Positions 11,147-64,000 of a DNA stretch of 64,000 nucleotides are shown in pieces. Within the stretch, counting starts at the first letter, position 1; each line of letters opens with the position of its first letter. This DNA comes from Hydrurus foetidus. Its lineage: Eukaryota. Under the pieces are notes generated by a model. That model was not told the origin of the DNA. It did no database searches and saw nothing but the letters and a program-made list of their open reading frames with translations. The stretch covers positions 62,001 through 126,000 of the forward strand of contig UYFQ01000315.1 of assembly GCA_900617105.1 (NCBI GenBank), given 5' to 3'. The position numbers and the translations under genes are program-made.

Positions 11147-11796
11147 CTTCAGTTGAGACGCCTAGAAAAGATTGGTGGAGCTATACCAGCGGTGCTGATA
11201 GCGGAGTAAATTTGCAGAGACTTTACTTTTTGAGTGAAGGTTTAAAATGCAGATTCGTCCTTGCGGTGCTGCTGCTTGAAAGCAAAAGATGCGCACGAAT
11301 GACGTCCGAATGTCCGAATGAATATTTCGCACTCTTTTCGTGATAACTTCAATCGACAATGATCGGATCCCAGATCCATGATCCTGTGTGGTGTTAGAAA
11401 ACAGGTAGCGCGCACGTACGCACGCCCAAAACAATCCCAAATAATTTGAATACCGAATGTACCCTCTCGAAACCGCTGTACTGAAAGAATGTCTCAGACA
11501 GAGTGATCAGTGGCCAGTCTTCTGCAAAGGCCACCAATGAAATGAATCTGCTGAGAAGTTGCATCACGAGCAGATTCCTTTTCCCATTTGTCATCGTCGA
11601 TAGATGCAAACGCCATCCAAATATCTGACTTTAAAATGGTTGTCATCACTATCCAGGATATTCTAGATGATTTTGAGGAGTCATCTATTATATTCAAAAG
11701 GAGATTCAGAAACGGGATCAATATTAAATGAAATATTATCGATTCCGTGTACTGCTACTTTGATTACGCCATCTGTAGGTCGAACGCGAAGTCGTT
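11147..11796. promoter_or_regulatory. Putative bidirectional promoter/5' UTR region between FBPase and the giant repeat gene (650 bp)
   Basis: Inferred from the head-to-head arrangement. Contains a gcgcgcacgtacgcacgc element at ~11408-11426. Confidence 0.4.
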
Positions 11797-14700: not shown

Positions 14701-15141
14701 ACTACAAACATTCCAATTTACCGTATTCTGAAAAAGGAAAGGTAACTGTTATCAATGAGCAATTTGCTGATGCTGTGACTGATTAATTTGAATCTTCTAA
14801 TAGAATAATTTATCTTCTCTTCCCTTCTCTTCTCCTCTTCTCTCCTCCCTTTCATTCCTCCTCTTACATCTATTAAAGCATGTCCGCAGCTACTTCACTT
14901 CTCTTTTATCCTATCCTCCCTTACAAAGCTCTGCTCTATTCCTATTCCTATTCCTATCGACCGCCACATTTTCCCTCATCTACTACTACCCAACACACAT
15001 CTTTTTTTCATTTTTCCAAGTGTAAAAATAGCCAACAAGAGGATTTCACGATATGGCCAAGTAAACTGATCCTCGCAGTAGCTGCCTCACCGACACTTTC
15101 CAGCGACTTAGAACAAAAACTAAACGAGTTCACTGATATAG
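11797..15141 (+). CDS. 5' small exons of a giant acidic repeat protein gene
   Basis: Phase-consistent chain: 11797-12179 (MFNTPQSISPRRRR...SYE), 12248-12296, 12355-12401, 12582-12661, 12906-13232, 13526-13597, 14641-14741, 15021-15141. All have GT/AG ends and no stops (1180 nt). The chain joins in phase to the acceptor TATTTAG| at 15428, which is in frame with ORF 15547-20406. The start codon is uncertain because there is also an acceptor at 11778. Confidence 0.7.
13871..14604. repeat. 21-bp minisatellite (CATCCCATCCTAACATTATCA), ~35 near-identical copies, intronic
   Basis: Direct tandem array with two A>T variant units and one disrupted unit at ~14281-14296. Lies between exons 13526-13597 and 14641-14741. 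Confidence 0.98.
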
Positions 15142-18400: not shown

Positions 18401-21400
18401 ATGTAGATAATGAAATAAAAATTGGGAATAATGACATGCATAATACACCTGACAATCAAAACGAAAATGAAAACGAAAATGTCGCATCTCCTCCAGTATA
18501 CGCATTGGAGGGAGACTTTGTAACGGATGATAATATAGATCTGACAGTGCGTGGGGGGGATTTTGTAGGCCCTGATGATAGTGCTGAGAGTAATACGTGC
18601 GTTGGAGAGGGTAGTATGTACGTCCCTGAAAATAGTACGAGTGTCGCGGAAAGCAGTGAATTCATTGAAGATTGTCCGATGGATTCCTTCTATGACGGAG
18701 ATGAATGGAGGAACATGGTATTTCACGAGATAAGTGTGGAAGATGTGGGGGGAGGAGAAAGATATGAAGATTGGGATGAAGTCGAAGATGAACATGTAAA
18801 CGGCCTGATGGATGGGCAGGCGGATGAAATGAGGGATGAAGAGGGAGAAGAGAAGAGAAGTAAAGATGACAATGTTGAGTTCGAAGCAGGAGCCGAGGAA
18901 AGGGGAGCGTTCGAGAACTCTCTCCTATCTGACATCGATGCGAAACCTGACGCAGAGACAGACACAGTCAGAGAAGCACAAAACGAGGGTACAAATAAGA
19001 CAAAAATCAAAACTGGAGTCGAGACTGGAGTCGAGGCTCACATCGAAGCAGAGGTCGAGGTCGATGCAGAGGTCGAGGTCGATGCAGAGGTCGAGTTGAT
19101 AGCAGACATCAAGGCAGACATCGAGACTGGAGTCAAGGCTCACATCGAAGCAGAGGTCGAAGTAGAGGTCAATGTAGAGGTCGAGGTCGATGCAGAGGTC
19201 GAGTTGATAGCAGACATCGAGGCAGACATCGAGACTGGAGTCGAGGCTGACATCGAAGCAGAGGTCGAGGTCGATGCAGAGGTCGAGGTCGATGCAGAGG
19301 TCGAGTTGATAGCAGACATCGAGGCAGACATCGAGACTGGAGTCGAGGCTCACATCGAAGCAGAGGTCGAGGTCGATGCAGAGGTCGAGGTCGATGCAGA
19401 GGTCGAGGTCGATGCAGAGGTCGAGTTGATAGCAGACATCGAGGCAGACATCGAGACTGGAGTCGAGGCTAACATCGAAGCAGAGGTCGAGGTCGATGCA
19501 GAGGTCGAGGTCGATGCAGAGGTCGAGGTCGATGCAGAGGTCGAGGTCGATGCAGAGGTCGAGTTGATAGCAGACATCGAGGCAGACATCGAGACTGGAG
19601 TCGAGGCATACATCGAAGCAGAGGTCGAGGTCGATGCAGAGGTCGAGGTCGAGGTCGAGGTCGATGCAGAGGTCGAGTTGATAGCAGACATCGAGGCAGA
19701 CATCGAGACTGGAGTCGAGGCTGACATCGAAGCAGAGGTCGAGGTCGAGGTCGATGCAGAGGTAGAGGTCGAGTTGATAGCAGACATCGAGGCAGACATC
19801 GAGACTGGAGTCGAGGCTGACATCGAAGCAGAGGTCCAATTACAGGTCGAGGTCGATGCAGAGGTCGAGTTGATAGTAGACATCAAGGCAGACATCGAGA
19901 CTGGAGTGGAGGCATACATTGAAGCAGAGGTCGAGGTCGATGCAGAGGTCGAGGTCGATGCAGAGGTCGAGGTCGATTCAGAGGTCGAGTTGATAGCAGA
20001 CATCGAGGCAGACATCGAGACTGGAGTCGAGGCTGACATCGAAGCAGAGGTCGAGGTCGATGCAGAGGTCGAGGTCGAGGCAGAGGTCGAGTTGATAGCA
20101 GACATCGAGGCGAGACATCGAGAGAGGTCGAGGTCGATGCAGATCGATCGAAGCAGAGGTCGAGGTCGATGCAGAGGTCGAGTTGATAGCAGACATCGAG
20201 GCAGACATCGAGACTGGAGTCGAGGCTCACATCGAAGCAGAGGTCGATGTAGAGGTCGAGGTCGATGCAGAGGTCGAGTTGATAGCAGACATCGAGGCAG
20301 ACATCGAGACTGGAGTGGAGGCTCACATCGAAGCAGAGGTCGAGGTCGATGCAGGTCGAGGTCGAGCAGAGGTCGAGTGCAGAGGTCGAGTTCGATGTCG
20401 AGTTGATAGCAGACATCGAGGCAGACATCGAGACTGGAGTCGAGGCTCACATCGAAGCAGAGGTCGAGGTCGATGCAGAGGTCGAGTTGATAGCAGACAT
20501 CGAGGCAGACATCGAGACTGGAGTCGAGGCTCACATCGAAGCAGAGGTCGAGGTCGATGCAGAGGTCGAGGTCGATGCAGAGGTCGAGTTGATAGCAGAC
20601 ATCGAGGCAGACATCGAGACTGGAGTCGAGGCTCACATCGAAGCAGAGGTCGAGGTCGATGCAGAGGTCGAGGTCGAGGTCGATGCAGAGGTCGAGTTGA
20701 TAGCAGACATCGAGGCAGACATCGAGACTGGAGTCGAGGCTCACATCGAAGCAGAGGTCGAGGTCGATGCAGAGGTCGAGGTCGAGGTCGATGCAGAGGT
20801 CGAGTTGAGTTGATAGCAGACATCGAGGCAGACATCGAGACTGGAGTCGAGGCTCACATCGAAGCAGAGGTCGAGGTCGAGGTCGATGCAGAGGTCGAGT
20901 TGATATAGCAGACATCGAGGCAGACATCGAGACTGGAGTCGAGGCTCACATCGAAGCAGAGGTCGAAGTACAGGTCGATGCAGAGGTCGAGGTCGATGCA
21001 GAGGTCGAGGTCGATGCAGACATCGAGGCAGACATCGAGACTGGAGTCGAGGCTGACATCGAAGCAGAGGTCGAGGTCGATGCAGAGGTCGAGGAGGTCG
21101 ATGCAGGTCGAGTCGAGTTGATAGCAGACATCGAGGCAGACATCGAGACTGGAGTCGAGGCTCACATCGAAGCAGAGGTCGAGGTCGAGGTCGAGGTCGA
21201 TGCAGAGGTCGAGTTGATAGCAGACATCGAGGCAGACATCGAGACTGGAGTCGAGGCTCACATCGAAGCAGAGGTCGAGGTCGATGCAGAGGTCGAGAGG
21301 TCGATGCAGAGGTCGAGATCGAGGTCGAGTTGATAGCAGACATCGAGGCAGACATCGAGACTGGAGTCGAGGCTCACATCGAAGCAGAGGTCGAGGTCGA

Positions 21401-24400
21401 TGCAGAGGTCGAGGTCGATGCAGAGGTCGAGTTGATAGCAGACATCGAGGCAGACATCGAGACTGGAGTCGAGGCTCACATCGAAGCAGAGGTCGAAGTC
21501 AGAGGTCGAGGCAGAGGTCGAGGTCGAGGTCGAGTCGAGTTGATAGCAGACATCGAGGCAGACATCGAGACTGGAGTCGAGGCTCACATCGAAGCAGAGG
21601 TCGAGGTCGAGGTCGAGGAGGTCGAGGTCGAGAGAGTCGAGGTCGATGCAGAGGTCGAGATGAGTAGCAGACATCGAGGCAGACATCGAGACTGGAGTCG
21701 AGGCTCACATCGAAGCAGAATCAGAGGTGGAGGTCGATGCAGAGGTCGAAGCAGAGGTCGAGGTCAGAGGTCGAGGCGAGTTGATAGCAGACATCGAGGC
21801 AGACATCGAGACTGGAGTCGAGGCTCACATCGAAGCAGAGGTCGAGGTCGATGCAGAGGTCGAGGTCGATGCAGAGGTCGAGTTGATAGCAGACATCGAG
21901 GCAGACATCGAGACTGGAGTCGAGGCTCACATCGAAGCAGAAGCAGAGTTCGAGGTCGATGCAGAGGTCGAGATCGAGTTGATAGCAGACATCGAGGCAG
22001 ACATCGAGACTCAGTCGAGGCTCACATCGAAGCAGAGGTCGAGGTCGAGGTCGAGGTCAGAGGTCGAGTTGATAGCAGACATCGAGGCAGACATCGAGAC
22101 TGGAGTCGAGGCTCACATCGAAGCAGAAGCGAGAGAGGTCGAGGTCGATGCGAGAGGTCGAGGTCGATGCAGAGGTCGAGTTGATAGCAGACATCGAGGC
22201 AGACATCGAGACTGGAGTCGAGGCTCACATCGAAGCAGAGGTCGAAGTACAGGTCGATGTCGAGTTGATAGCAGACATCGAGGCAGACATCGAGACTGGA
22301 GTCGAGGCTCACATCGAAGCAGAAGTAGAGGTCGAGGTCGATGCAAAGGTCGAGGTCGATGCAGAGGTCGAGTTGATAGCAGACATCGAGGCAGACATCG
22401 AGACTGGAGTCGAGGCTCACATCGAAGCAGAGGTCGAGGTCGATGCAGAGGTCGAGTTGATAGCAGACATCGAGGCAGACATCGAGACTGGAGTCGAGGC
22501 TGACATCGAAGCAGAGGTCGAGGTAGATGAAGATGTCGAGGTCGAGGTCGATGCAGAGGTCGAGATCGAGTTGATAGTAGACATCGAGGCAGACATCGAG
22601 ACTGGAGTCGAGGCTCACATCGAAGCAGAGGTCGAGGTCGATGCAGAGGTCGAGTTGATAGCAGACATCGAGGCAGACATCGAGACTGGAGTCGAGGCTC
22701 ACATCGAAGCAGAAGAAGAGGTCGAGGTCGATGCAGAGGTCGAGGTCGAGTTGATAGCAGACATCGAGACTGGAGTCGAGGCTCACACCGAAGCAGAAGA
22801 AGAAGAAGAGTTCGAGGTCGATGCAAATGTCGAGGTCGAAGTCGAGTTGATAGCAGACATCGAGGCAGACATCGAGACTGGAGTCGAGGCTCACATCAAA
22901 GTAGAAGAAGAGGTCGAGTCCGATGCAGAGGTCGAGGTCGATGCAGAGGTCGAGTTGATAGCAGTCATCGAGGCAGACATCGAGACTGGAGTCGAGGCTG
23001 ACATCGAAGCAGAGGTCGAAGTACAGGTCGATGTCGAGTTTATAGAAGACATCGAGGCAGACATCGAGACTGGAGTCGAGGCTGACATCGAAGCAGAAGA
23101 AGAGGTCGAGGTCGATGCAAAGGTCGAGGTCGATGCAGAGGTCGAGTTGATAGCAGACATCAAGACAGATATCGAGACTGGAGTCGAGGCTCACATCGAA
23201 GCAGAGGTCGAGGTCGATGCAGAGGTCGAGGTCGATGCAGAGGTCGAGATCGAGTTGATAGTAGACATCGAGGCAGACATCGAGACTGGAGTCGAGGCTC
23301 ACATCGAAGCAGAGGTCGCAGTACTTTTTAAGGTCGAGTTGGTAGCAGACATCGAGGCAGACATCGAGACTGGAGTCGAGACTCACATCGAAGCAGAAGA
23401 AGAGGTCGAGGTCGATGCAGAGGTCGAGGTCGAGTCCGATGCAGAGGTTGAGGTCGATGCAGAGGTCGAGTTGATAGCAGACATCGAGGCAGATATCGAG
23501 ACTGGAGTCGAGGCTCACATCGAAGCAGAGGTCGAGGTTGAGATCGAAATAGAGTTGATAGCAGACATCGAGGCAGACATCGAGACTGGAGTCGAGGCTG
23601 ACATCGAAGCAGAGGTCGAAGTACAGGTCGATGTCGAGTTGATAGCAGACATCGAGGCAGACATCGAGACTGGAGTCGAGGCTCACATCGAAGCAGAGGT
23701 CGAGGTCGATGCAGAGGTCGAGGTCGATGCAGAGGTCGAGTTGATAGCAGACATCGAGGCAGACATCGAGACTGGAGTCGAGGCTCACATCGAAGCAGAG
23801 GTAGAGGTCGATGCAGAGGTCGAGGTCGATGCAGAGGTCGAGTTGATAGCAGACATCGAGGCAGACATCGAGACTGGAGTCGAGGCTCACATCGAAGCAG
23901 AGGTCGAGGTCGATGCAGAGGTCGAGGTCGATGCAGAGGTCGAGTTGATAGCAGACATCGAGGCAGACATCGAGACTGGAGTCGAGGCTCACATCAAAAT
24001 AGAAGCAGAGGTCGAGGTCGATGCAGAGGTCGAGGTCGATGCAGAGGTCGAGGTCGAGTTGATAGCAGACATCGAGGCAGACATCGAGACTGGAGTCGAG
24101 GCTCACATCGAAGCAGAGGCGGAGGTCGAGGTCGAGTTGATAGCAGACATCGAGGCAGACATCGAGACTGGAGTCGAGGCTAACATCGAAGCAGAGGTCG
24201 AGGTCGATGCAGAGGTCGAGGTCGATGCAGTCATCGAGGCAGACATCGTTACTGGAGTCGAGGTTGATATCAAAGCAGAGGTCGAGGTCGATGCAAAGGT
24301 CGAGGTCTATGCAGAGGTCGAGTTGATAGCAGACATCGAGGCAGACATCGAGACTGGAGTCGAGGCTCACATCGAAGCAGAAGAAGAGGTCGAGGCCGAT

Positions 24401-27400
24401 GCAGAGGTCGAGGTCGATGCAGAGGTCGAGTTGATAGCAGTCATCGAGGCAGATATCGAGACTGGAGTCGAGGCTGACATCGAAGCAGAGGTCGAAGTAC
24501 AGGTCGATGTCGAGTTGATAGCAGACATCGAGGCAGACATCGAGACTGGAGTCGAGGCTCACATCGAAGCAGAGGTCGAGGTCGATGCAGAGGTCGAGGT
24601 CGATGCAGAGGTCGAGTTGATAGCAGACATCGAGGCAGACATCGAGACTGGAGTCGAGGCTCACATCGAAGCAGAAGCAGAGGTCGAGGTCGATGCAGAG
24701 GTCGAGGTCGATGCAGAGGTCGAGATCGAGTTGATAGCAGACATCGAGGCAGACATCGAGACTGGAGTCGAGGCTGACATCGAAGCAGAGGTCGAGGTCG
24801 AGTCCGATGCAGAGGTCGAGGTCGCTGCAAAGGTCGAGGTCGATGCAGAAGTCAAGTTGATAGCAGACATCGAGGCAGACATCGAGACTGGAGTCGAGGC
24901 TAACATCGAAGCAGAGGTCGATGCAGAGGTCGAGTTGATAGCAGACATCGAGGCAGACATCGAGACTGGAGTCGAGGCTCACATCGAAGCAGAGGTCGAG
25001 GTCGATGCAGAGGTCGAGTTGATAGCAGACATCGAGGCAGACATCGAGACTGGAGTCGAGGCTCACATCGAAGCAGAGGTCGAGGTCGATGCAGAGGTCG
25101 AGGTCGATGCAGAGGTCGAGATCGAGTTGATAGCAGACATCGAGGCAGACATCGAGACTGGAGTCGAGGCTGACATCGAAGCAGAGGTCGAGGTCGATGC
25201 AGAGGTCGAGATCGAGTTGATAGCAGACATCGAGGCAGACATCGAGACTGGAGTCGAGGCTCACATCGAAGCAGAGGTCGAGGTCGATGCAAATGTCGAG
25301 GTCGAAGTCGAGTTGATAGCAGACATCGAGACTGGAGTCGAGGCTCACATCGAAGCAGAAGTTGAAGAAGAGGTCGAGGTCGATGCAGAGGTCGAGGTCG
25401 ATGCAGAGGTCGAGTTGATAGCAGACATCGAGGCAGACATCGAGACTGGAGTCGAGGCTGACATCGAAGCAGAGGTCGATGCAGAGGTTAAGTTGATAGC
25501 AGACATCAAGGCAGACATCGAGACTGGAGTCGAGGCTGACATCGAAGCAGAGGTCGAGGTCGATACAGAGGTCGAGGTCGATGCAGAGGTCGAGTTGATA
25601 GCAGACATCGAGGCAGACATCGAGACTGGAGTCGAGGCTCACATCAAAATAGAAGCAGAGGTCGAGGTCGATGCAGAGGTCGAGGTCGATGCAGAGGTCG
25701 AAGTCGAGTTGATAGCAGATATCGAGGCAGACATCGAGACTGGAGTCGAGGCTCACATCGAAGCAGAGGTCGAGGTCGATGCAAAGCTCGAGGTCAATGC
25801 AGAGGTCGAGGTCGATACAGAGCTTGAGGTCGATGCAGAGGTCGAGTTGATAGTAGACATCGAGGCAGACATCGAGACTGGAGTCGAGGCTCACATCGAA
25901 GCAGAAGAAGAAGCAGAGGTCGAGGTCGATGCAGAGGTCGAGGTCGATGCAGAGGTCGAAGTCGAGTTGATAACAGACATCGAGGCAGACATCGAGACTG
26001 GAGTCGAGGCTGACATCGAAGCAGAGGTCAAGGTTGAGTTTGAAATAGAGTTGATAGCAGACATCGAGGCAGACATCGAGGCAGACATCGAGACTGGAGT
26101 CGAGGCTCACATCGAAGTAGAAGAAGAGGTCGAGGTCGATGCAGAGGTCGAGGTCGATGCAGAGGTCGAGTTTTATTTGATAGCAGACATCGAGGCAGAC
26201 ATCGAGACTGGAGTCGAGGCTGACATCGAAGCAGAGGTCGATGCAGAGGTCGAGATCGAGTTGATAGCAGACATCGAGGCAGACATCGAGACTGGAGTCG
26301 AGGCTCACATCGAAGCAGAGGTCGAGGTCGATGCAGAGGTCGAGGTCGATGCAGAGGTCGAGTTGATAGCAGACATCGAGGCAGACATCGAGACTGGAGT
26401 CGAGGCTCACATCGAAATAGAAGCAGAGGTCGAGGTCGATGCAGAGGTCGATGCAGAGGTCGAAGTCGAGTTGATAGCAAATATCGAGGCAGACATCGAG
26501 ACTGGAGTCGAGGCTCACATCGAAGCAGAGGTCGAGGCAGAGGTCGAGGTCGAGGTCAATGCAGAGGTCGAGGTCGATACAGAGCTTGAGGTCGATGCAG
26601 AGGTCGAGTTGATAGTAGACATCGAGGCAGACATCGAGACTGGAGTCGAGGCTCACATCAAAATAGAAGCAGAGGTTGAGGTCGATGCAGAGGTCGAGGT
26701 CGATGCAGAGGTCGAGGTCGATGCAGAGGTCGAGTTGATAGCAGACATCGAGGCAGACATCGAGACTGGAGTCGAGGCTCACATCGAAGCAGAAGCAGAG
26801 GTCGAGGTCGATGCAGAGGTCGAGGTCGATGCAGAGGTCGAGTCGAGTTGATAGCAGACATCGAGGCAGACATCGAGACTGGAGTCGAGGCTCACATCGA
26901 AGTAGAAGAAGAGGTCGAGTCCGATGCAGAGGTCGAGGTCGATGCAGAGGTCGAGTTGATAGCAGACATCGAGGCAGACATCGAGAGTCGAGGCTCACAT
27001 CGAAGCAGAGGTCGAGGTCGAGGCAGAGGCGGAGGTGGAGGTCGAAGTCGAGTTGATAGCAGACATCGAGGCAGACATCGAGACTGGAGTCGAGGCTCAC
27101 ATCGAAGCAGAGGTCGAGGTAGATGAAGATGTCGAGGTCGAGGTCGATGCAGAGGTCGAGTTGATAGCAGACATCGAGGCAGACATCGAGACTGGAGTCG
27201 AGGCTCACATCGAAGCAGAGGTCGAGGTCGATGCAGAGGTCGAGTTGATAGCAGACATCGAGGCAGACATCGAGACTGGAGTCGAGGCTGACATCGAAGC
27301 AGAGGTCGAGGTCGATGCAGAGGTCGAGGTCGATGCAGAGGTCGAGTTGATAGCAGACATCGAGGCAGACATCGAGACTGGAGTCGAGGCTCGCATCGAA

Positions 27401-30400
27401 GCAGAAGAAGAAGAAGAGGTCGAGGTTGATGCAAAGGTCGAGGTCGAAGTCGGGTTGATAGCAGACATCGAGGCAGACATCGAGACTGGAGTCGAGGCTC
27501 ACATCGAAGCAGAGTTCGAAGTTCTTTTTAAGGTCGAGTTGATAACAGTCATCGAGGCAGACATCGAGACTGGAGTCGAGGCTCACATCGAAGTAGAAGC
27601 AGAGGTCGATGTTGTTGCAAAGGTCGAGGTCGATGCAGAGGTCGAGTTGATAGCAGACATCGAGACTGGAGTCGAGGCTCACATCGAAGTAGAAGCAGAG
27701 GTCGAGGCAGAGGCGGAGGTGGAGGTCGATGCAGAGGTCGAGTTCGACTTGATAGCAGACATCGAGGCAGACATCGAGACTGGAGTCGAGGCTCACATCG
27801 AAGCAGATGTAGAAGCAGAGGTCGAGGTCGATGCAAATGTCGAGGTCGATGCAGAGGTCGAGTTGATAGCAGACATCGAGGCAGACATCGAGACTGGAGT
27901 CGAGGCTCACATCGAAGCAGAGGTCGAAGTTCTTTTTAAGGTCGAGTTGATAACAGACATCGAGGCAGACATCGAGACTGGAGTCGAGGCTCACATTGAA
28001 GTAGAAGAAGAGGTCGAGTCCGATGCAGAGGTCGAGGTCGATGCAGAGGTCGAGTTGATAGCAGACATCGAGACTGGAGTCGAGGCTCACATCGAAGTAG
28101 AAGCAGAGGTCGAGGCAGAGGCGGAGGTGGAGGTCGATGCAGAGGTCGAGTTGATAGCAGACATCGAGGCAGACATCGAGACTGGAGTCGAGGCTCACAT
28201 CGAAGCAGATGTAGAAGCAGAGGTCGAGGTCGATGCAGAGGTCGAGGTCGATGCAGAGGTCGAGATCGAGTTGATAGCAGACATCGAGGCAGACATCGAG
28301 ACTGGAGTCGAGGCTCACATCGAAGCAGAGGTCGAGGTCGATGCAGAGGTCGAGTTGATAGCAGACATCGAGGCAGACATCGAGACTGGAGTCGAGGCTC
28401 ACATCGAAGCAGAGGTCGAGGTCGATGCAGAGGTCGAGGTCGATGCAGAGGTCGAGTTGATAGCAGACATCGAGGCAGACATCGAGACTGGAGTCGAGGC
28501 TCACATCGAAGCAGAGGTCGAAGTACAGGTCGAGGTCGATGCAGAGGTCGAGTTGATAGCAGACATCGAGGCAGACATCGAGACTGGAGTCGAGGCTCAC
28601 ATCGAAGCAGAGGTCGAGGTCGATGCAGAGGTCGAGGTCGATGCAGAGGTCGAGTTGATAGCAGACATCGAGGCAGACATCGAGACTGGAGTCGAGGCTC
28701 ACATCGAAGTAGAAGCAGAGGTCGAGTCGATGCAGAGGTCGAGGTCGATGCAGAGGTCGAGTTCGATATCGAGGCAGACATCGAGACTGGAGTCGAGGCT
28801 CACATCGAAGCAGAGGTCGAGGTCGAGGCAGAGGTCGAGGTCGATGCAGAGGTCGAGGTCGAGTCGAGTTGATAGCAGACATCGAGGCAGACATCGAGAC
28901 TGGAGTCGAGGCTGACATCGAAGCAGAGGTCGAGGTCGATGAAGAGGTCGAGGTCGAGGTCGATGCAGAGGTCGAGTTGATAGCAGACATCGAGGCAGAC
29001 ATCGAGACTGGAGTCGAGGCTCACATCGAAGCAGAGGTCGAGGTCGATGCAGAGGTCGAGGTCGAGGTCGATGCAGAGGTCGAGTTGATAGCAGACATCG
29101 AGGCAGACATCGAGACTGGAGTCGAGGCTGACATCGAAGCAGAGGTCGAAGTACAGGTCGAGGTCGATGCAGAGGTCGAGTTGATAGCAGACATCGAGGC
29201 AGACATCGAGACTGGAGTCGAGGCTCACATCGAAGCAGAGGTCGAGGTCGATGCAGAGGTCGAGGTCGATGCAGAGGTCGAGTTGATAGCAGACATCGAG
29301 GCAGACATCGAGACTGGAGTCGAGGCTCACATCGAAGTAGAAGAAGAGGTCGAGGTCGATGCAGAGGTCGAGGTCGATGCAGAGGTCGAGTTGATAGCAG
29401 ACATCGAGACTGGAGTTGAAGCTCACATCGAAGCAGAGGTCGAGGTCGAGGCAGAGGCGGAGGTGGAGGTCGAAGTCGAGTTGATAGCAGACATCGAGGC
29501 AGACATCGAGACTGGAGTCGAGGTTGACATCGAAGCAGAGGTCGAGGTAGATGAAGATGTCGAGGTCGAGGTCAATGCAGAGGTCGAGTTGATAGCAGAC
29601 ATCGAGACTGGAGTCGAGGCTCACATCGAAGTAGAAGCAGAGGTCGAGGTTGTTGCAAAGGTCGAGGTCGATCCAGAGGTCGAGTTGATAGCAGTCATCG
29701 AGGCAGACATCGAGACTGGAGTCGAGGCTTACATCGAAATAGAAGCAGAGGTCGAGGACGATGCAAAGGTCGAGGTCGATGCAGAGGTCGAAGTCGAGTT
29801 GATAGCAGACATCGAGGCAGACATCGAGACTGGAGTCGAGGCTCACATCGAAGCAGATGTAGAAGCAGAGGTCGAGGTCGAAGTACAGGTCGAGTCGAGT
29901 TGATAGCAGACATCGAGGCAGACATCGAGACTGGAGTCGAGGCTCACATCGAAGCAGAGGTCAAAGTACAGGTCGATGTCGAGTTGATAGCAGACATCGA
30001 GGCAGACATCGAGACTGGAGTCGAGGCTCACATCGAAGCAGAGGTCGAATTTCTTTTTAAGGTCGAGTTGATAACAGTCATCGAGGCAGACATCGAGACT
30101 GGAGTCGAGGCTCACATCGAAGTAGAAGAAGAGGTCGAGGTCGATGCAGAGGTCGAGGTCGATGCAGAGGTCGAGTCGCAGACATCGAGACTGGAGTCGA
30201 GGCTCACATCGAAGCAGAGGTCGAGGTCGAGGCAGAGGCGGAGGTGGAGGTCGATGCAGAGGTCGAGTTGATAGCAGACATCGAGGCAGACATCGAGACT
30301 GGAGTCGAGGCTCACATCGAAGCAGAAGAAGCAGAGGTCGAGGTCGATGCAGAGGTCGAGGTCGATGCAGAGGTCGAGTTGATAGCAGACATCGAGGCAG

Positions 30401-36400: not shown

Positions 36401-39400
36401 AGGTCGATGCAGAGGTCGAGGTCGAGGTCGAAGTCGAGTTGATAGCAGACATCGAGGCAGACATCGAGACTGGAGTCGAGGCTCACATCGAAGCAGAGGT
36501 CGAGGTCGATGCAGAGGTCGAGTTGATAGCAGACATCGAGGCAGACATCGAGACTGGAGTCGAGGCTCACATCGAAGCAGAGGTCGAGGTCGATGCAGAG
36601 GTCGAGGTCGATGCAGAGGTCGAGGTCGAGGTCGATGCGAGAGAGGTCGAAGTACAGGTCGAGGTCGAGTTGATAGCAGACATCGAGGCAGACATCGAGA
36701 CTGGAGTCGAGGCTCACATCGAAGCAGAGGTCGAGGTCGAGGTCGAGCAGATCGAGAGAGTTGATAGCAGACATCGAGGCAGACATCGAGACTGGAGTCG
36801 AGGCTCACATCGAAGCAGAGGTCGAAGTACAGGTCGATGTCGAGTTGATAGCAGACATCGAGGCAGACATCGAGACTGGAGTCGAGGCTCACATCGAAGC
36901 AGATGTAGAAGCAGAGGTCGAGGTCGATGCAGAGGTCGAGATCGATTTGATAGCAGACATCGAGGCAGACATCGAGACTGGAGTCGAGGCTCACATCGAA
37001 GCAGATGTAGAAGCAGAGGTCGAGGTCGAGGTCGATGCAGAGGTCGAGATCAAGTTGATAGCAGACATCGAGGCAGACATCGAGACTGGAGTCGAGGCTC
37101 ACATCGAAGTAGAAGTCGAGGTCGATGCAGAGGTCGAGTTGATAGCAGACATCGAGGCAGACATCGAGACTGGAGTCGAGGCTGACATCGAAGCAGAGGT
37201 CGAGGTCGATGCAGAGGTCGAGGTCGATGCAGAGGTCAAGGTCGATGCAAAGGTCGAGTTGATAGCAGACATCGAGGCAGACATCGAGACTGGAGTCGAG
37301 GCTCACATCGAAGCAGATGTTAAAGCAGAGGTCGAGGTCGATGCAGAGGTCGAGGTCGAAATCGAGTTGATAGCAGACATCGAGGCAGACATCGAGACTG
37401 GAGTCGAGGCTCACATCGAAGCAGAGGTCGAGGTCGATGCAGAGGTCGAAGTCGAGTTGATAGCAGACATCGAGGCAGACATCGAGACTCACATCGAAGC
37501 AGATGTAGAAGCAGAGGTCGAGGTCGATGCAGACGTCGAGGTCGATGAAGAGGTCGAGGTCGATGCAGAGGTCGAGTTTATAGCAGACATCGAGGCAGAC
37601 ATCGAGACTGGAGTCGAAGCTCACATCGAAGCAGATGTAGAAGCAGAGGTCGAGGTCGAAGTCGGGTTGATAACGACATCGAGGCAGACATCGAGACTGG
37701 AGTCGAGGCTTACATCGAAGTAGAAGCAGAGGTCGTGGTTGAGATCGAAATAGAGTTGGTAGCAGACATCAAGGCAGACATCGAGACTGGAGTCGAGGCT
37801 TACATCGAAGTAGAAGAAGAGGTCGAGGTCAATGCAAAGGTCGAGGTCGATGCAGAGGTCGAGTTGATAGCAGACATCGAGGCAGACATCGAGACTGGAG
37901 TCGAGGCTGACATCGAAGCAGAGGTCGAAGTACAGGTCGAGGTCGATGCAGAGGTCGAAGTCGAGTTGATAGCAGACATCGAGGCAGACATCGAGACTGG
38001 AGTCGAGGCTGACATCGAAGCAGAGGTCGAGGTCGATACAGAGGTCGAGGTCGATGCAGAGGTCGAAGTAGAGGTCGAAGTCGAGTTGATAGCAGACATC
38101 GAGGCAGACATCGAGACTGGAGTCGAGGCTCACATCGAAGCAGATGTAGAAGCAGAGGTCGAGGTCGAAGTCGGGTTGATAACGACATCGAGGCAGACAT
38201 CGAGACTCGAGTCGAGGCTTACATCGAAGTAGAAGCAGAGGTCGAGGTTGAGATCGAAATAGAGTTGGTAGCAGACATCAAGGCAGACATCGAGACTGGA
38301 GTCGAGGCTTACATCGAAGTAGAAGCAGAGGTCGAGGTCGATGCAGAGGTCGAGGTCGATGCAGAGGTCGAGTTGATAGCAGACATCGAGGCAGACATCG
38401 AGACTGGAGTCGAGGCTGACATCGAAGCAGAGGTCGAAGTACAGGTCGAGGTCGATGCAAAGGTCGAAGTCGAGTTGATAGCAGACATCGAGGCAGACAT
38501 CGAGACTGGAGTCGAGGCTCACATCGAAGCAGAGGTCGAGGTCGATGCAGAGGCGGAGGTCGAGGTCGATGCAGAGGTCGAGTTGATAGAAGACATCGAG
38601 GCAGACATCGAGACTGGAGTCGAAGCTCACATCGAAGCAGAGGTCGAGGTCGAGGCGAGAGGTCGAGGTCGAGCAGTCGAGGTCGAGCAGAGGTCGAGAT
38701 CGAGTTGATAGCAGACATCGAGGCAGACATCGAGACTGGAGTCGAGGCTCACATCGAAGCAGAGGTCGAAGTCGAGGTCGAGGTCGATGCAGAGGTCGAG
38801 ATCGAGTTGATAGCAGACATCGAGGCAGACATCGAGACTGGAGTCGAGGCTCACATCGAAGCAGAGGTCGAGGTCGAGGTCGATGCAGAGGTCGAGGTCG
38901 AGGTCGATGCAGAGGTCGAGTTGATAGCAGACATCGAGGCAGACATCGAGACTGGAGTCGAGGCTCACATCGAAGCAGAGGTCGAGGTCGATGCAGAGGT
39001 CGAGGTCGATGCAGAGGTCGAGTTGATAGCAGACATCGAGGCAGACATCGAGACTGGAGTCGAGGCTCACATCGAAGCAGAGGTCGAGGTCGATGCAGAG
39101 GTCGAGGTCGATGCAGAGGTCGAGTTGATAGCAGACATCGAGGCAGACATCGAGACTGGAGTCGAGACTCACATCGAAGCAGATGTAGAAGAAGAGGTCG
39201 AGGTCGATGCAGAGGTCGAGGTCGATGCAGAGGTCGAGTTGATAGCAGACATCGAGGCAGACATCGAGACTGGAGTCGAGGCTCACATCGAAGCAGAGGT
39301 CGAGGTCGATGCAGAGGTCGAGGTCGATGCAGAGGTCGAGTTGATAGCAGACATCGAGGCAGACATCGAGACTGGAGTCGAGGCTCACATCGAAGCAGAG

Positions 39401-54400: not shown

Positions 54401-57400
54401 GAGACTGGAGTCGAGGCTCACATCGAAGCAGAGGTCGAGCAGAGGTCGAGGTCGAGGTCGATGCAGAGGTCGAGTTGATAGCAGACATCGAGGCAGACAT
54501 CGAGACTGGAGTCGAGGCTCACATCGAAGCAGAGGTCGAAGTACAGGTCGAAGTCGAGTTGATAGCAGACATCGAGGCAGACATCGAGACTGGAGTCGAG
54601 GCTCACATCGAAGCAGAGGTCGAGGTCGATGCAGAGGTCGAGATCGAGTTGATAGCAGACATCGAGGCAGACATCGAGACTGGAGTCGAGGCTCACATCG
54701 AAGCAGAGGTCGAGGTCGATGCAGAGGTCGAGGTCGAGTTGATAGCAGACATCGAGGCAGACATCGAGACTGGAGTCGAGGCTCACATCGAAGCAGAGGT
54801 CGAAGTACAGGTCGATGTCGAGTTGATAGCAGACATCGAGGCAGACATCGAGACTGGAGTCGAGGCTCACATCGAAGCAGAGGTCGAAGTACAGGTCGAT
54901 GTCGAGTTGATAGCAGACATCGAGGCAGACATCGAGACTGGAGTCGAGGCTCACATCGAAGCAGAGGCAGAGGTCGAGGTCGATGCAGAGGTCGAGATCG
55001 AGTTGATAGCAGACATCGAGGCAGACATCGAGACTGGAGTCGAGGCTCACATCGAAGCAGAGGTCGAAGCAGAGGTCGAGGTCGATGCAGAGGTCGAGTT
55101 GATAGCAGACATCGAGGCAGACATCGAGACTGGAGTCGAGGCTCACATCGAAGCAGAGGTCGAAGCAGAGGTCGAGGTCGAGTTGATAGCAGACATCGAG
55201 GCAGACATCGAGACTGGAGTCGAGGCTCACATCGAAGCAGAGGTCGAGGTCGATGCAGAGGTCGAGATCGAGTTGATAGCAGACATCGAGGCAGACATCG
55301 AGACTGGAGTCGAGGCTCACATCGAAGCAGAGGTCGAGGTCGATGCAGAGGTCGAGGTCGAGTTGATAGCAGACATCGAGGCAGACATCGAGACTGGAGT
55401 CGAGGCTCACATCGAAGCAGAGGTCAAAGTACAGGTCGAGGTCGAGTTGATAGCAGACATCGAGGCAGACATCGAGACTGGAGTCGAGGCTCACATCGAA
55501 GCAGATGTAGAAGCAGAGGTCGAGGTCGATGCAGAGGTCGAGATCGAGTTGATAGCAGATATCGAGGCAGACATCGAGGCAGACATCGAGACTGGAGTCG
55601 AGGCTCACATCGAAGCAGAGGTCAAAGTACAGGTCGATGTCGAGTTGATAGCAGACATCGAGGCAGACATCGAGACTGGAGTCGAGGCTCACATCGAAGC
55701 AGAGGTCGAAGTACAGGTCGAGGTCGAGTTGATAGCAGACATCGAGGCAGACATCGAGACTGGAGTCGAGGCTCACATCGAAGCAGAGGTCGAAGCAGAG
55801 GTCGAGGTCGATGCAGAGGTCGAGATCGAGTTGATAGCAGACATCGAGGCAGACATCGAGACTGGAGTCGAGGCTCACATCGAAGCAGAGGTCGAAGTAC
55901 AGGTCGAGGTCGAGTTGATAGCAGACATCGAGGCAGACATCGAGACTGGAGTCGAGGCTCACATCGAAGCAGAGGTAGAAGCAGAGGTCGAGGTCGATGC
56001 AGAGGTCGAGATCGAGTTGATAGCAGACATCGAGGCAGACATCGAGACTGGAGTCGAGGCTCACATCGAAGCAGAGGTCGAGATCGAGTTGATAGCAGAC
56101 ATCGAGGCAGACATCGAGACTGGAGTCGAGGCTCACATCGAAGCAGAGGTCGAGGTCGATGCAGAGGTCGAGGTCGATGCAGAGGTCGAGTTGATAGCAG
56201 ACATCGAGGCAGACATCGAGACTGGAGTCGAGGCTCACATCGAAGCAGAGGTCGAAGCAGAGGTCGAGGTCGATGCAGAGGTCGAGATCGAGTTGATAGC
56301 AGACATCGAGGCAGACATCGAGACTGGAGTCGAGGCTCACATCGAAGCAGAGGCGGAGGTCGATGTCGAGTTGGTAGCAGACATCGAGGCAGACATCGAG
56401 ACTGGAGTCGAGGCTCACATCGAAGCAGAGGTCAAGGTCGAAGTACAGGTCGAGGTCGAGTTGATAGCAGACATCGAGGCAGACATCGAGACTGGAGTCG
56501 AGGCTCACATCGAAGCAGAGGTCGAAGCAGACGTCGAGGTCGATGCAGAGGTCGAGGTCGAGTTGATAGCAGACATCGAGGCAGACATCGAGACTGGAGT
56601 CGAGGCTCACATCGAAGCAGAGGTCGAGGTCGATGTCGAGTTGATAGCAGACATCGAGGCAGACATCGAGACTGGAGTCGAGGCTCACATCGAAGCAGAG
56701 GTCGAGGTCGAGGTCGAGGTCGAGTCGAGATCAGACATCGAGGCAGAGGTCGAGGTCGATGCAGAGGTCGAGATCGAGGATAGCAGACATCGAGGCAGAC
56801 ATCGAGACTGGAGTCGAGACTCACATCGAAGCAGAAGTAGAAGCAGAGGTCGAGGTCGATGCAGAGGTCGAGATCGAGTTGATAGCAGACATCGAGGCAG
56901 ACATCGAGACTGGAGTCGAGGCTCACATCGAAGCAGAGGTCGAAGTACAGGTCGAGGTCGAGTTGATAGCAGACATCGAGGCAGACATCGAGACTGGAGT
57001 CGAGGCTCACATCGAAGCAGAGGTCGAGGTCGAGGTCGAGTTGATAGCAGACATCGAGGCAGACATCGAGACTGGAGTCGAGGCTCACATCGAAGCAGAT
57101 GTCGAAGCAGAGGTCGAGGTCGATGCAGATCGAGGTCGATGCAGAGGTCGAGGTCGATGCAGAGGTCGAGTCGAGTTGATAGCAGACATCGAGGCAGACA
57201 TCGAGACTGGAGTCGAGGCTCACATCGAAGCAGAGGTAGAAGTAGAGGTCGAGGTCGATGCAGAGGTCGAGATCGAGTTGATAGCAGACATCGAGGCAGA
57301 CATCGAGACTGGAGTCGAGGCTCACATCGAAGCAGAGGTCGAAGTACAGGTCGAGGTCGAGTTGATAGCAGACATCGAGGCAGACATCGAGACTGGAGTC

Positions 57401-60400
57401 GAGGCTCACATCGAAGCAGAGGTCGAAGTACAGGTCGAAGTCGAGTTGATAGCAGACATCGAGGCACACATCGAGACTGGAGTCGAGGCTCACATCGAAG
57501 CAGATGTAGAAGCAGAGGTCGAGGTCGATGCAGACATCGAGGTCGATGCAGAGGTCGAGGTTGATGCAGAGGTCGAGTTGATAGCAGACATCGAGGCAGA
57601 CATCGAGACTGGAGTCGAAGCTCACATCGAAGCAGAAGTAGAAGTACAGGTCGAGGTCGATGCAGAGGTCGAGATCGAGTTGATAGCAGACATCGAGGCA
57701 GACATCGAGACTGGAGTCGAGGCTCACATCGAAGCAGAGGTCGAGGTCGAGGTCGAAGTCGAGTTGATAGCAGACATCGAGGCAGACATCGAGACTGGAG
57801 TCGAGGCTCACATCGAAGCAGAGGTCGAAGTACAGGTCGAAGTCGAGTTGATAGCAGACATCGAGGCAGACATCGAGACTGGAGTCGAGGCTCACATCGA
57901 AGCAGAGGCGGAGGTCGAGGTCGAGTTGATAGCAGACATCGAGGCAGACATCGAGACTGGAGTCGAGGCTCACATCGAAGCAGATGTAGAAGCAGAGGTC
58001 GAGGTCGATGCAGAGGTCGAGGTCGATGCAGAGGTCGAGGTCGAAATCGAGTTGATAGCAGACATCGAGGCAGACATCGAGACTGGAGTCGAGGCTCACA
58101 TCGAAGCAGAGGTCGAGGTCGATGCAGAGGTCGAGTTGATAGCAGACATCGAGGCAGACATCGAGACTGGAGTCGAGGCTCACATCGAAGCAGAGGCGGA
58201 GGTCGAGGTCGAGTTGGTAGCAGACATCGAGGCAGACATCGAGACTGGAGTCGAGGCTCACATCGAAGCAGATGTAGAAGCAGAGGTCGAGGTCGATGCA
58301 GAGGTCGAGGTCGATGCAGAGGTCGAGGTCGATGCAGAGGTCGAGTTGATAGCAGACATCGAGGCAGACATCGAGACTGGAGTCGAGGCTCACATCGAAG
58401 CAGATGTAGAAGCAGAGGTCGAGGTCGATGCAGAGGTCGAGATCGAGTTGATAGCAGACATCGAGGCAGACATCGAGACTCGAGACTGTCGAGGCTCACA
58501 TCGAAGCAGAGGTCGAGGTACAGGTCGATGTCGAGTTGATAGCAGACATCGAGGCAGACATCGAGACTGGAGTCGAGGCTCACATCGAAGCAGAGGTCGA
58601 GGTCGATGCAGAGGTCGAGTTGATAGCAGACATCGAGGCAGACATCGAGACTGGAGTCGAGGCTCACATCGAAGCAGAGGTCGAGGTCGATGCAGAGGTC
58701 GAGGTCGAGGTCGATGCAGAGGTCGAGGTCGATGCAGAGGTCGAGATCGAGTTGATAGCAGACATCGAGGCAGACATCGAGACTGGAGTCGAGGCTCACA
58801 TCGAAGCAGATGTAGAAGCAGAGGTCGAGGTCGATGCAGAGGTCGAGATCGAGTTGATAGCAGACATCGAGGCAGACATCGAGACTGGAGTCGAGGCTCA
58901 CATCGAAGCAGAGGTCGAAGTACAGGTCGATGTCGAGTTGATAGCAGACATCGAGGCAGACATCGAGACTGGAGTCGAGGCTCACATCGAAGCAGAGGTC
59001 GAGGTCGATGCAGAGGTCGAGTTGATAGCAGACATCGAGGCAGACATCGAGACTGGAGTCGAGGCTCACATCGAAGCAGAGGTCGAGGTCGATGCAGACG
59101 TCGAGGTCGATGCAGAGGTCGAGGTCGATGCAGAGGTCGAGATCGAGTTGATAGCAGACATCGAGGCAGACATCGAGACTGGAGTCGAGACTCACATCGA
59201 AGCAGATGTAGAAGCAGAGGTCGAGGTCGATGCAGAGGTCGAGATCGAGTTGATAGCAGACATCGAGGCAGACATCGAGACTGGAGTCGAGGCTCACATC
59301 GAAGCAGAGGTCGAAGTACAGGTCGATGTCGAGTTGATAGCAGACATCGAGGCAGACATCGAGACTGGAGTCGAGGCTCACATCGAAGCAGAGGCGGAGG
59401 TCGAGGTCGAGTTGGTAGCAGACATCGAGGCAGACATCGAGACTGGAGTCGAGGCTCACATCGAAGCAGATGTAGAAGCAGAGGTCGAGGTCGATGCAGA
59501 CGTCGAGGTCGATGCAGAGGTCGAGGTTGATGCAGAGGTCGAGTTGATAGCAGACATCGAGGCAGACATCGAGACTGGAGTCGAAGCTCACATCGAAGCA
59601 GAAGTAGAAGTACAGGTCGAGGTCGATGCAGAGGTCGAGATCGATTTGATAGCAGACATCGAGGCACACATCGAGACTGGAGTCGAGGCTCACATCGAAG
59701 CAGAGGTCGAAGTACAGGTCGAAGTCGAGTTGATAGCAGACATCGAGGCAGACATCGAGACTGGAGTCGAGGCTCACATCGAAGCAGAGGTCGAAGTACA
59801 GGTCGAAGTCGAGTTGATAGCAGACATCGAGGCAGACATCGAGACTGGAGTCGAGGCTCACATCGAAGCAGATGTAGAAGCAGAGGTCGAGGTCGATGCA
59901 GACGTCGAGGTCGATGCAGAGGTCGAGGTTGATGCAGAGGTCGAGTTGATAGCAGACATCGAGGCAGACATCGAGACTGGAGTCGAGGCTCACATCGAAG
60001 CAGAGGTAGAAGCAGAGGTCGAGGTCGAGGTCGATGCAGAGGTCGAGATCGAGTTGATAGCAGACATCGAGGCAGACATCGAGACTGGAGTCGAGGCTCA
60101 CATCGAAGCAGAGGTCGAAGTACAGGTCGAAGTCGAGTTGATAGCAGACATCGAGGCAGACATCGAGACTGGAGTCGAGGCTCACATCGAAGCAGAGGTC
60201 GAAGTACAGGTCGAAGTCGAGTTGATAGCAGACATCGAGGCAGACATCGAGACTGGAGTCGAGGCTCACATCGAAGCAGAGGCGGAGGTCGAGGTCGAGT
60301 TGGTAGCAGACATCGAGGCAGACATCGAGACTGGAGTCGAGGCTCACATCGAAGCAGATGTAGAAGCAGAGGTCGATGCAGAGGTCGAGGTCGATGCAGA

Positions 60401-63400
60401 GGTCGAGTTCGAAATCGAGTTGATAGCAGACATCGAGGCAGACATCGAGACTGGAGTCGAGGCTCACATCGAAGCAGAGGTCGAGGTCGATGCAGAGGTC
60501 GAGTTGATAGCAGACATCGAGGCAGACATCGAGACTGGAGTCGAGGCTCACATCGAAGCAGATGTAGAAGCAGAGGTCGATGCAGAGGTCGAGGTCGATG
60601 CAGAGGTCGAGATCGAGTTGATAGCAGACATCGAGGCAGACATCGAGACTGGAGTCGAGGCTCACATCGAAGCAGAGGTCAAAGTACAGGTCGATGTCGA
60701 GTTGATAGCAGACATCGAGGCAGACATCGAGACTGGAGTCGAGGCTCACATCGAAGCAGAGGTCGAGGTCGATGCAGAGGTCGAGGTTGACATCGAAGCA
60801 GAGGTCGAGGTCGATGCAGAGGTCGAGTTGATAGCAGACATCGAGGCAGACATCGAGACTGGAGTCGAGGCTCACATCGAAGCAGAGGTCGAAGTACAGG
60901 TCGAAGTCGAGTTGATAGCAGACATCGAGGCAGACATCGAGACTGGAGTCGAGGCTCACATCGAAGCAGAGGTCGGACAGGTCGATGGTCGAGTTGATAG
61001 CAGACATCGAGGCAGACATCGAGACTGGAGTCGAGGCTCACATCGAAGCAGAGGTCGAAGTACAGGTCGAAGTCGAGTTGATAGCAGACATCGAGGCAGA
61101 CATCGAGACTGGAGTCGAGGCTCACATCGAAGCAGAGGTCGAGGTCGAGTTGATAGCAGACATCGAGGCAGACATCGAGACTGGAGTCGAGGCTCACATC
61201 GAAGCAGAGGTCGAGGTCGATGCAGACGTCGAGGTTGACATCGAAGCAGAGGTCGAGGTCGATGCAGAGGTCGAGTTGATAGCAGACATCGAGGCAGACA
61301 TCGAGACTGGAGTCGAGGCTCACATCGAAGCAGAGGTCGAAGTACAGGTCGAAGTCGAGTTGATAGCAGACATCGAGGCAGACATCGAGACTGGAGTCGA
61401 GGCTCACATCGAAGCAGAGGTCAAAGTACAGGTCGAGGTCGAGTTGATAGCAGACATCGAGGCAGACATCGAGACTGGAGTCGAGGCTCACATCGAAGCA
61501 GAGGTCGAAGTACAGGTCGAAGTCGAGTTGATAGCAGACATCGAGGCAGACATCGAGACTGGAGTCGAGGCTCACATCGAAGCAGAGGTCGAGGTCGAGT
61601 TGATAGCAGACATCGAGGCAGACATCGAGACTGGAGTCGAGGCTCACATCGAAGCAGATGTAGAAGCAGAGGTCGATGCAGAGGTCGAGGTCGAGGTCGA
61701 TGCAGAGGTCGAGATCGAGTTGATAGCAGACATCGAGGCAGACATCGAGACTGGAGTCGAGGCTCACATCGAAGCAGAGGTCGAGGTCGAGGTCGAAGTC
61801 GAGTTGATAGCAGACATCGAGGCAGACATCGAGACTGGAGTCGAGGCTCACATCGAAGCAGAGGTCGAGGTCGATGCAGACGTCGAGGTCGATGCAGAGG
61901 TCGAGGTCGATGCAGAGGTCGAGATCGAGTTGATAGCAGACATCGAGGCAGACATCGAGACTGGAGTCGAGGCTCACATCGAAGCAGAGGTCGAAGTACA
62001 GGTCGAAGTCGAGTTGATAGCAGACATCGAGGCAGACATCGAGACTGGAGTCGAGGCTCACATCGAAGCAGAGGCGGAGGTCGAGGTCGAGTTGATAGCA
62101 GACATCGAGGCAGACATCGAGACTGGAGTCGAGGCTCACATCGAAGCAGAGGCAGAGGTCGAGGTCGATGCAGAGGTCGAGGTCGATGCAGAGGTCGAGA
62201 TCGAGTTGATAGCAGACATCGAGGCAGACATCGAGACTGGAGTCGAGGCTCACATCGAAGCAGAGGTCGAAGTACAGGTCGAAGTCGAGTTGATAGCAGA
62301 CATCGAGGCAGACATCGAGACTGGAGTCGAGGCTCACATCGAAGCAGAGGCGGAGGTCGAGGTCGAGTTGATAGCAGACATCGAGGCAGACATCGAGACT
62401 GGAGTCGAGGCTCACATCGAAGCAGAGGTCGAAGTACAGGTCGAGGTCGAGTTGATAGCAGACATCGAGGCAGACATCGAGACTGGAGTCGAGGCTCACA
62501 TCGAAGCAGAGGCGGAGGTCGAGGTCGAGTTGATAGCAGACATCGAGGCAGACATCGAGACTGGAGTCGAGGCTCACATCGAAGCAGATGTAGAAGCAGA
62601 GGTCGATGCAGACGTCGAGGTCGAGGTCGATGCAGAGGTCGAGATCGAGTTGATAGCAGACATCGAGGCAGACATCGAGACTGGAGTCGAGGCTCACATC
62701 GAAGCAGAGGTCGAGGTCGAAGTAGAGGTCGAAGTCGAGTTGATAGCAGACATCGAGGCAGACATCGAGACTGGAGTCGAGGCTCACATCGAAGCAGAGG
62801 CGGAGGTCGAGGTCGAGTTGATAGCAGACATCGAGGCAGACATCGAGACTGGAGTCGAGGCTCACATCGAAGCAGATGTCGAAGCAGAGGTCGAGGTCGA
62901 TGCAGAGGTCGAGGTCGAGGTCGATGCAGAGGTCGAGTTCGAGTTGATAGCAGACATCGAGGCAGACATCGAGACTGGAGTCGAGGCTCACATCGAAGCA
63001 GAGGTCGAGGTCGATGCAGAGGTCGAGTTGATAGCAGACATCGAGGCAGACATCGAGACTGGAGTCGAGGCTCACATCGAAGCAGAGGTAGAAGCAGAGG
63101 TCGAGGTCGATGCAGAGGTCGAGGTCGAGGTCGATGCAGAGGTCGAGTTCGAGTTGATAGCAGACATCGAGGCAGACATCGAGACTGGAGTCGAGGCTCA
63201 CATCGAAGCAGAGGTCGAGGTCGATGCAGAGGTCGAGTTGATAGCAGACATCGAGGCAGACATCGAGACTGGAGTCGAGGCTCACATCGAAGCAGATGTA
63301 GAAGCAGAGGTCGATGCAGAGGTCGAGGTCGATGCAGAGGTCGAGATCGAGTTGATAGCAGACATCGAGGCAGACATCGAGACTGGAGTCGAGGCTCACA

Positions 63401-64000
63401 TCGAAGCAGAGGTCAAAGTACAGGTCGAAGTCGAGTTGATAGCAGACATCGAGGCAGACATCGAGACTGGAGTCGAGGCTCACATCGAAGCAGAGGTCGA
63501 GGTCGATGCAGAGGTCGAGGTTGACATCGAAGCAGAGGTCGAGGTCGATGCAGAGGTCGAGGTCGAGTTGATAGCAGACATCGAGGCAGACATCGAGACT
63601 GGAGTCGAGGCTCACATCGAAGCAGAGGTCGAAGTACAGGTCGAAGTCGAGTTGATAGCAGACATCGAGGCAGACATCGAGACTGGAGTCGAGGCTCACA
63701 TCGAAGCAGAGGTCAAAGTACAGGTCGAGGTCGAGTTGATAGCAGACATCGAGGCAGACATCGAGACTGGAGTCGAGGCTCACATCGAAGCAGAGGTCGA
63801 AGTACAGGTCGAAGTCGAGTTGATAGCAGACATCGAGGCAGACATCGAGACTGGAGTCGAGGCTCACATCGAAGCAGAGGTCGAGGTCGAGTTGATAGCA
63901 GACATCGAGGCAGACATCGAGACTGGAGTCGAGGCTCACATCGAAGCAGAGGTCGAGGTCGATGCAGACGTCGAGGTTGACATCGAAGCAGAGGTCGAGG
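15428..64000 (+). CDS. Giant exon: ~1,200 aa non-repetitive K/N/D/E-rich region followed by an E/V/D/A/I tandem-repeat region; runs off the window; interrupted by frameshifts and 3 TAG codons in this assembly
   Basis: Uninterrupted acidic reading frame 15428 to ~20110, from unique sequence straight into the repeats. After that, long acidic-frame ORFs (e.g. 22148-26851, 40626-43230, 45335-48043, 48940-51411) are linked by local indels. Confidence 0.65.
19012..64000 (+). repeat. >=45 kb tandem array of roughly 500 units (estimate): 60-bp core plus variable 6-nt-module linker
   Basis: Core gagttgatagcagacatcgaggcagacatcgagactggagtcgaggctcacatcgaagca, followed by combinations of gaggtc, gatgca, gaagta, caggtc and gagatc. 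Units are mostly ~66-115 bp. Confidence 0.99.

Follow-up and report, generated by a model that had tools for sequence, protein, structure and literature searches.

The window, a stretch of 64,000 nucleotides from Hydrurus foetidus, is eukaryotic DNA. Upstream of a modelled five-exon gene it carries an SLC52-like gene and a split fructose-bisphosphatase gene; the last known exon of the modelled gene passes into a tandem array that runs on to the window end (Table 1). The fructose-1,6-bisphosphatase gene starts about 650 bp from the ATG of the modelled gene and is read in the opposite direction, and the SLC52-like open frame has 31 relatives in a near-length search. Near the left edge lies what may be another split gene, to judge from a group of open frames separated by intron-like gaps; two of its pieces gave no match when scanned against Pfam. 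Sequence of the window is also present in sediment, biofilm and freshwater metagenomes. The core motif of the array was absent from the metagenome, viral and prokaryotic genome contigs searched, and a bacterial or viral origin is therefore disfavoured within those collections. An Atlas search with the array returned no hit at 0.9 or above. A literature search of listings found no description of this array; the annotation of a genome paper may list the gene.

Table 1. Features of the window and their coordinates.
Feature	Position	Strand	Remarks
Putative split gene	459..2785	-	Several open frames with intron-like gaps
SLC52-like transporter open frame	3019..4455	+	
Split fructose-1,6-bisphosphatase gene	about 7400..11161	-	Pfam FBPase and FBPase_C pieces
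Modelled exon 1	11797..12179	+	ATG at 11797, in-frame stop upstream, GT-AG introns, phases fit
Modelled exon 2	12916..13232	+	Splice motifs and phase only
Tandem repeat in modelled intron 2, 21 bp x 35	13871..14604	.	97% matches
Modelled exon 3	14641..14741	+	Splice motifs and phase only
Modelled exon 4	15021..15141	+	Splice motifs and phase only
Giant exon 5, unique part	15428..19008	+	1,193 open codons, low-complexity, increasingly acidic
Tandem array	19009..64000	+	At least 447 units, mostly 72-144 bp, hexamer-built; reads (E/D)-(V/A/I) in the exon 5 frame
Frame-break cluster	20113..22160	+	20 of 64 broken tokens; first break in frame at about 20113
1-bp frame break common to two sister higher-order copies	37664..38190 (about 37670 and about 38179)	+	Neighbours differ

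The five-exon model, in which exons 1-4 are predicted, is drawn from sequence alone, by splice motifs and intron phases; it joins 1,865 codons without a stop up to position 20100 and places the start of the array at residue 1502. The open frame from 15428 extends over 1,193 codons, compared with 155 codons for the longest frame in 2,000 shuffles, and the array begins in frame with it, a point that had escaped the first-pass annotation. Along the modelled protein, net charge moves from near zero to about -30 per 100 residues ahead of the array. No signal peptide or membrane helix was found before the array in the modelled gene, which makes the mineral-templating surface once suggested for the repeat unlikely. 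A search of 1.84 billion representatives with exon 1 retrieved only exon 1 itself, metagenome contigs contained no locus related to the start of exon 5, and neither this start nor exons 1 and 2 matched a Pfam family; the modelled gene thus appears to be an orphan. An unbroken exon 5 would span at least 48.5 kb and encode a protein of no fewer than 16,498 residues. The 21-bp repeat within intron 2 has long open frames on both strands and provides a useful non-coding comparison.

The array begins at about 19009 and its 3' end lies beyond the window, so that its length is at least 45 kb. Its unit intervals were taken from anchor to anchor with an 18-base anchor (n = 447, a few intervals covering two units): 405 are multiples of 6, 4 leave a remainder of 3 and 38 are off-frame. 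The initial description of unit-length variants as nearly all multiples of 6 thus holds in the assembly, as does that of a polar/apolar alternation kept in register over hundreds of units. Among the 7,219 hexamers counted in register (of 7,502 in the array, those within two hexamers of a frame break being excluded), 93.3% place a polar residue first and 99.0% an apolar residue second. The exceptions are the I-A pair, through which almost every unit carries Ile at a polar position, and a set of pattern-breaking pairs that recur (E-E 31, V-I 12+4, V-L 7 and D-E 7). Glu makes up 29% of residues, Val 17%, Ala 16%, Ile 13% and Asp 10%; Gly occurs in the hexamer inventory almost only as G-V, once per unit. 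The near-lack of Pro and Lys noted earlier is confirmed (0.03% and 0.59%), Lys and Arg together reach 0.6%, Trp is absent and net charge is -0.39 per residue. The 447 units comprise 265 distinct sequences, and no repeated run of identical consecutive units is longer than 4. Unit types also shift along the array, with 102/108-bp units dominating 37-46 kb and 84-bp Q-V units doing so past 46 kb. CpG is not depleted (observed/expected 1.23).

Sequencing reads provide evidence on both the junction and the transcription of the array, from a comparison covering 4 of 21 runs and the region 18060-19165. A short-read contig from run X1, which may be the source sample, is identical to 18060-19046 with 0 differences and confirms the gene-array junction. 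In X4, a sediment metagenome from another study, the repeat unit is present together with 261 unique bases. The share of the H-to-D variant is 9.0% in the window, 9.7% in X1 and 9.8% in X4. Two runs of oligo-dT (poly(A)) RNA from one sample gave 37 and 27 reads on the unit per 10.5 million each, all of them on the repeat unit and with the first mate nearly always on the minus strand, the sense direction being assigned by the usual library convention without a control gene. DNA carry-over is disfavoured as the source, because it would be two-sided. Across 950 unique bases there was no RNA read, with fewer than one expected at even coverage, and the RNA support therefore concerns the array alone and not one gene-array mRNA. 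The array is thus likely transcribed from one strand at a low level, and two marks of a coding minisatellite are found here: a repeat in frame with a unique coding region, and one-strand transcription.

The joints and loose ends of the RNA reads add further detail. Nine of ten RNA joint classes give units of 6n bases (72-120), and one 2-read class gives 41 bases. The 102-bp unit was not seen among these joints, which may reflect 3' bias. In a 3-read loose end of run X21, at 19090, a TAG in frame takes the place of the Gln codon of a K-V-Q-V unit; this TAG is absent from the window and may mark where the frame naturally ends, belong to a strain allele or be noise. A 4-read loose end in the same run, at 19069, folds back on the repeat and has a 9-mer shared with the intron repeat, being either a library artefact or an inverted junction elsewhere. 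One loose end that was first read as a C-terminal tail was rejected for its resemblance to the sequencing adapter.

The even register of the array is explained fully, without selection, by slippage on a 6-bp period, the alternative that the first-pass annotation had itself put forward. Base identity in the array is 0.42 at lag 6 and 0.58 at lag 12 but only 0.28 at lag 3, against an expected 0.275; period 6 is present in the DNA and period 3 is absent. Within a clean tract of 4.6 kb, 2051 exact 6-mer matches were 6n bases apart, 17 were separated by an odd multiple of 3, and no other spacing occurred. These matches predict 3.4 odd-3n units among 409 in-frame units, and 4 were seen (P = 0.58). 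With mis-pairing of copies confined to steps of 6 bases, both frame and register would be preserved automatically. Any 6-bp repeat reads as a dipeptide repeat, and the polar/apolar alternation, far above that of random DNA, is not above the expectation for a repeat with a 6-bp period. Of open hexamers 19% are polar-apolar, and in the upstream exon the same holds for 26% of neighbouring residue pairs; such a seed is therefore easily found.

Selection on the repeat was assessed by re-dealing the observed substitution types over sites with the same base. In the 60-bp core, the 33 recurrent variants included 9 synonymous changes (9.5 expected), 5 pattern-breaking changes (5.75 expected) and 0 stops (0.85 expected; not significant). 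Over the whole array, with 17 hexamer types lacking a one-step parent excluded, 69 recurrent variants included 17 synonymous changes (18.5-19.6 expected) and 11 pattern-breaking ones (9.4-10.6 expected). Pattern-breaking variants did not have a lower copy number (P = 0.50) and reached up to 31 copies. Since the pattern-breaking and synonymous recurrent variants match chance expectation, the residues and their alternation look neutral, with a weak constraint on the open frame only. Stops were absent from the 69 recurrent variants of the whole array where 2.6 were expected, a weak result from one of several tests (P = 0.026-0.038), and 3 stops occurred among the 44 single variants. Against this neutral reading, breaking-plus-stop changes were rarer among recurrent (11/69) than among single variants (16/44; P = 0.02). 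This lower share could mean some selection on the pattern, but some of the single variants are sequencing errors, and among the recurrent types are recombined hexamers in which the pattern is necessarily preserved.

Altogether, the explanation that we favour, with moderate confidence, is a transcribed coding minisatellite that has grown to at least 45 kb in the last known exon of an orphan gene and that would encode a likely disordered acidic protein of at least 16,500 residues. A tentative and rather less probable alternative is that only the first part of the array is translated, a real frameshift or stop, for instance at about 37.7 kb, leaving the rest as an untranslated tail or an escaped transcribed satellite. 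The assembled array contains 3 single in-frame TAGs and 64 broken tokens, the latter grouped in 51 events of which one is the window edge, leaving 50 break events in the assembly. Many of these breaks, including the cluster near the start of the array, look like long-read consensus errors. A sister copy exists for 33 of the 50 events, and only 2 of the 33, forming one pair, share the break with it. Because the neighbours of these two sister copies differ, their identical break may be a real frameshift and is the best candidate for one; if so, translation would stop about 6,200 residues into the repeat. The same alternative draws on the lack of selection on residues, on the TAG in the RNA loose end together with the very low RNA level, and on the 21-bp intron repeat, which shows that open frames arise here in non-coding repeats. 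It is countered by the absence of stops among the 69 recurrent variants, by the remaining breaks not being common to sister copies, by the 9 of 64 broken tokens that are GG-to-G losses, and by clean in-frame runs of up to 4.7 kb.

A second alternative, which we consider improbable, develops the earlier proposal of a cation- or pH-dependent beta-solenoid. Alternation and even register would be kept by selection, and each unit would form one coil of a two-sided beta-solenoid or fibril that packs apolar residues in its interior, displays ladders of acid residues on its surface and is switched on by low pH or Ca2+. The structure prediction on several units that had been recommended gave a divided outcome. 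For seven units of 34-38 residues, AlphaFold2 returned a solenoid with 14-residue strands at a pLDDT of 87 (4 of 5 models at 75 or above), for which the best structural match was a SufB/SufD-type flat beta-helix (Z 15.7, rmsd 3.0, 210 aligned residues); curli CsgA matched at Z 13.0 and rmsd 8.3. Mostly 28-residue units, the commonest type, instead gave another layout with 25-residue strands and a pLDDT of 70 down to 25. Foldseek returned no match at E 0.001 or better for either model. Pfam matches on the array (Vit_open_b-sht, DUF481, DNAJC11, Bactofilin and others) were rejected as compositional matches to a beta pattern. In a study of random repeats, AlphaFold2 gave confident solenoids for 32 of 78 of them, and the solenoid obtained here is therefore weak evidence (PMC11795689).

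Other observations bear on the same proposal. The deficit of breaking-plus-stop changes among recurrent variants speaks for it, while register is predicted by slippage alone and needs no selection on a fold, and pattern-breaking variants recur at a neutral rate. In addition, the model of the 34-38-residue units absorbs the extra residues in one loop, where an even length is not obviously required, and the modelled gene carries no export signal. By the charge-hydropathy boundary formula, the array, with H at 0.517 and the boundary at 0.554, lies on the disordered side; a drop in its net charge from 0.39 to 0.29 per residue would carry it across. The modelling thus leaves a cation- or acid-dependent beta-solenoid physically possible. 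On alternating Glu/Asp-apolar polypeptides that fold with cations, the literature search returned no direct paper. Free cytosolic Ca2+ is normally too low for such a Ca2+ switch. RTX repeats, which switch from disorder to a beta-roll on Ca2+ (PMC4303809), show that a switch of this kind exists, but they serve only as a model of how the array might work: charge repulsion would keep an acidic repeat disordered until bound cations allowed it to fold. The array has no GGxGxD motif and no Pfam RTX match. The boldest reading, which we hold to be still more doubtful, has a single uninterrupted exon of at least 48.5 kb encoding a protein of more than 16,500 residues; on binding Ca2+ or protons, its 450 or more acidic units would turn from an expanded coil into one unbroken beta-solenoid rod, about 0.2 micrometres long or longer. 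If true, this would be a giant spring or fibre of natural origin, triggered by ions and derived directly from a hexamer repeat in DNA.

Finally, it is very unlikely that the array, though real, has had its length or order inflated or scrambled by assembly: a rough de Bruijn depth model, of order-of-magnitude value only because of contig simplification, does put copy number at 105-277 in X1 and 34-89 in X4 against the 447 assembled, and consensus-type errors are many, but the 265 distinct units and the gradient of unit types rule out a simple assembly loop, no long identical runs recur, and the H-to-D share is equal in the window and both samples.

Several known systems offer points of comparison for the favoured reading of a giant coding minisatellite. 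GSBP1 and GSBP2 of Spirostomum have 13,125 and 17,974 residues, lack introns and contain internal repeats; poly(A) selection had to be abandoned before their transcripts could be recovered. They carry Trp-centred Sfi1-like motifs, and the proteins themselves are confirmed by mass spectrometry (PMC9946354). The array is like them in size, in being an intronless giant repeat and in its internal repeats, and its thin poly(A) coverage fits the loss of GSBP transcripts under poly(A) selection. Unlike the GSBPs, the array has no Trp, is almost purely acid-apolar and specifies a protein that is so far a prediction; no homology is claimed. The AgSp1 spidroin, with 42,270 bp of coding sequence, likewise resembles the array in that its tandem coding repeat extends over tens of kilobases and can be read only by long-read sequencing (PMC6553539). 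The resemblance to GSBP1/2 and AgSp1 is one of scale only. Spidroins are secreted and have conserved terminal domains, whereas the array has no signal peptide, a head without relatives and short hexamer-built units.

The link to alveolins, articulins and epiplasmins drawn by the first-pass annotation did not survive comparison with published criteria. For epiplastins, these are acid-base dyads as the hallmark, V+I of about 33 +/- 7%, G of 0.4 +/- 0.7%, and low A and G (PMC6212826). The array is similar in its V+I of 30.2%, its richness in Glu, its long predicted beta-strands and the head domain before the repeat, and both AlphaFold2 models are all-strand, in keeping with a criterion of strand and coil without helix. 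It differs from the epiplastins in having a single acid-base dyad in 14,876 residues, K+R of 0.6%, A+G of 19.1% with G at 3.2%, a net charge of -0.39 per residue and a far longer repeat. No VPV module was found in the array and Pfam scans gave no IMCp match. By its sequence features, the array is not an epiplastin. Short E-V/E-A alternating tracts were also found in unrelated eukaryotic proteins, for example in Macrostomum (P0042) and Trichoderma (P0046), among 12 hits of which 4 were examined. These tracts span about 100-300 residues compared with about 15,000 in the array, and the likeness is compositional. The occurrence of the same dipeptide pattern in unrelated flatworm and fungal proteins indicates that it arises repeatedly.

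If the array is indeed a coding minisatellite, its history would begin with an acid-apolar codon pair of the GAG-GTC type, amplified inside an exon that was already acidic, and its growth would have proceeded by slippage and unequal exchange. Selection would probably act on keeping the frame open, perhaps also on length and charge, and not on the residues themselves. At cell pH, the prediction for the translated chain is an expanded intracellular polyanion, which would be free to collapse into beta structure once about a quarter of its charge was neutralised. Its most likely role may be that of a bulk spacer and cation sink, anchored by the 1,500-residue head.

Such a locus also carries a caution: a 6-bp period, without selection on a fold, can by itself give rise to a strict binary pattern, to an even register and to a solenoid that AlphaFold2 predicts with confidence. 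If translated, the array alone would amount to at least 1.6 MDa and about 5,900 acid residues, and Hydrurus foetidus would possess a titin-scale orphan polyanion made almost wholly by DNA slippage from a microsatellite-like seed.
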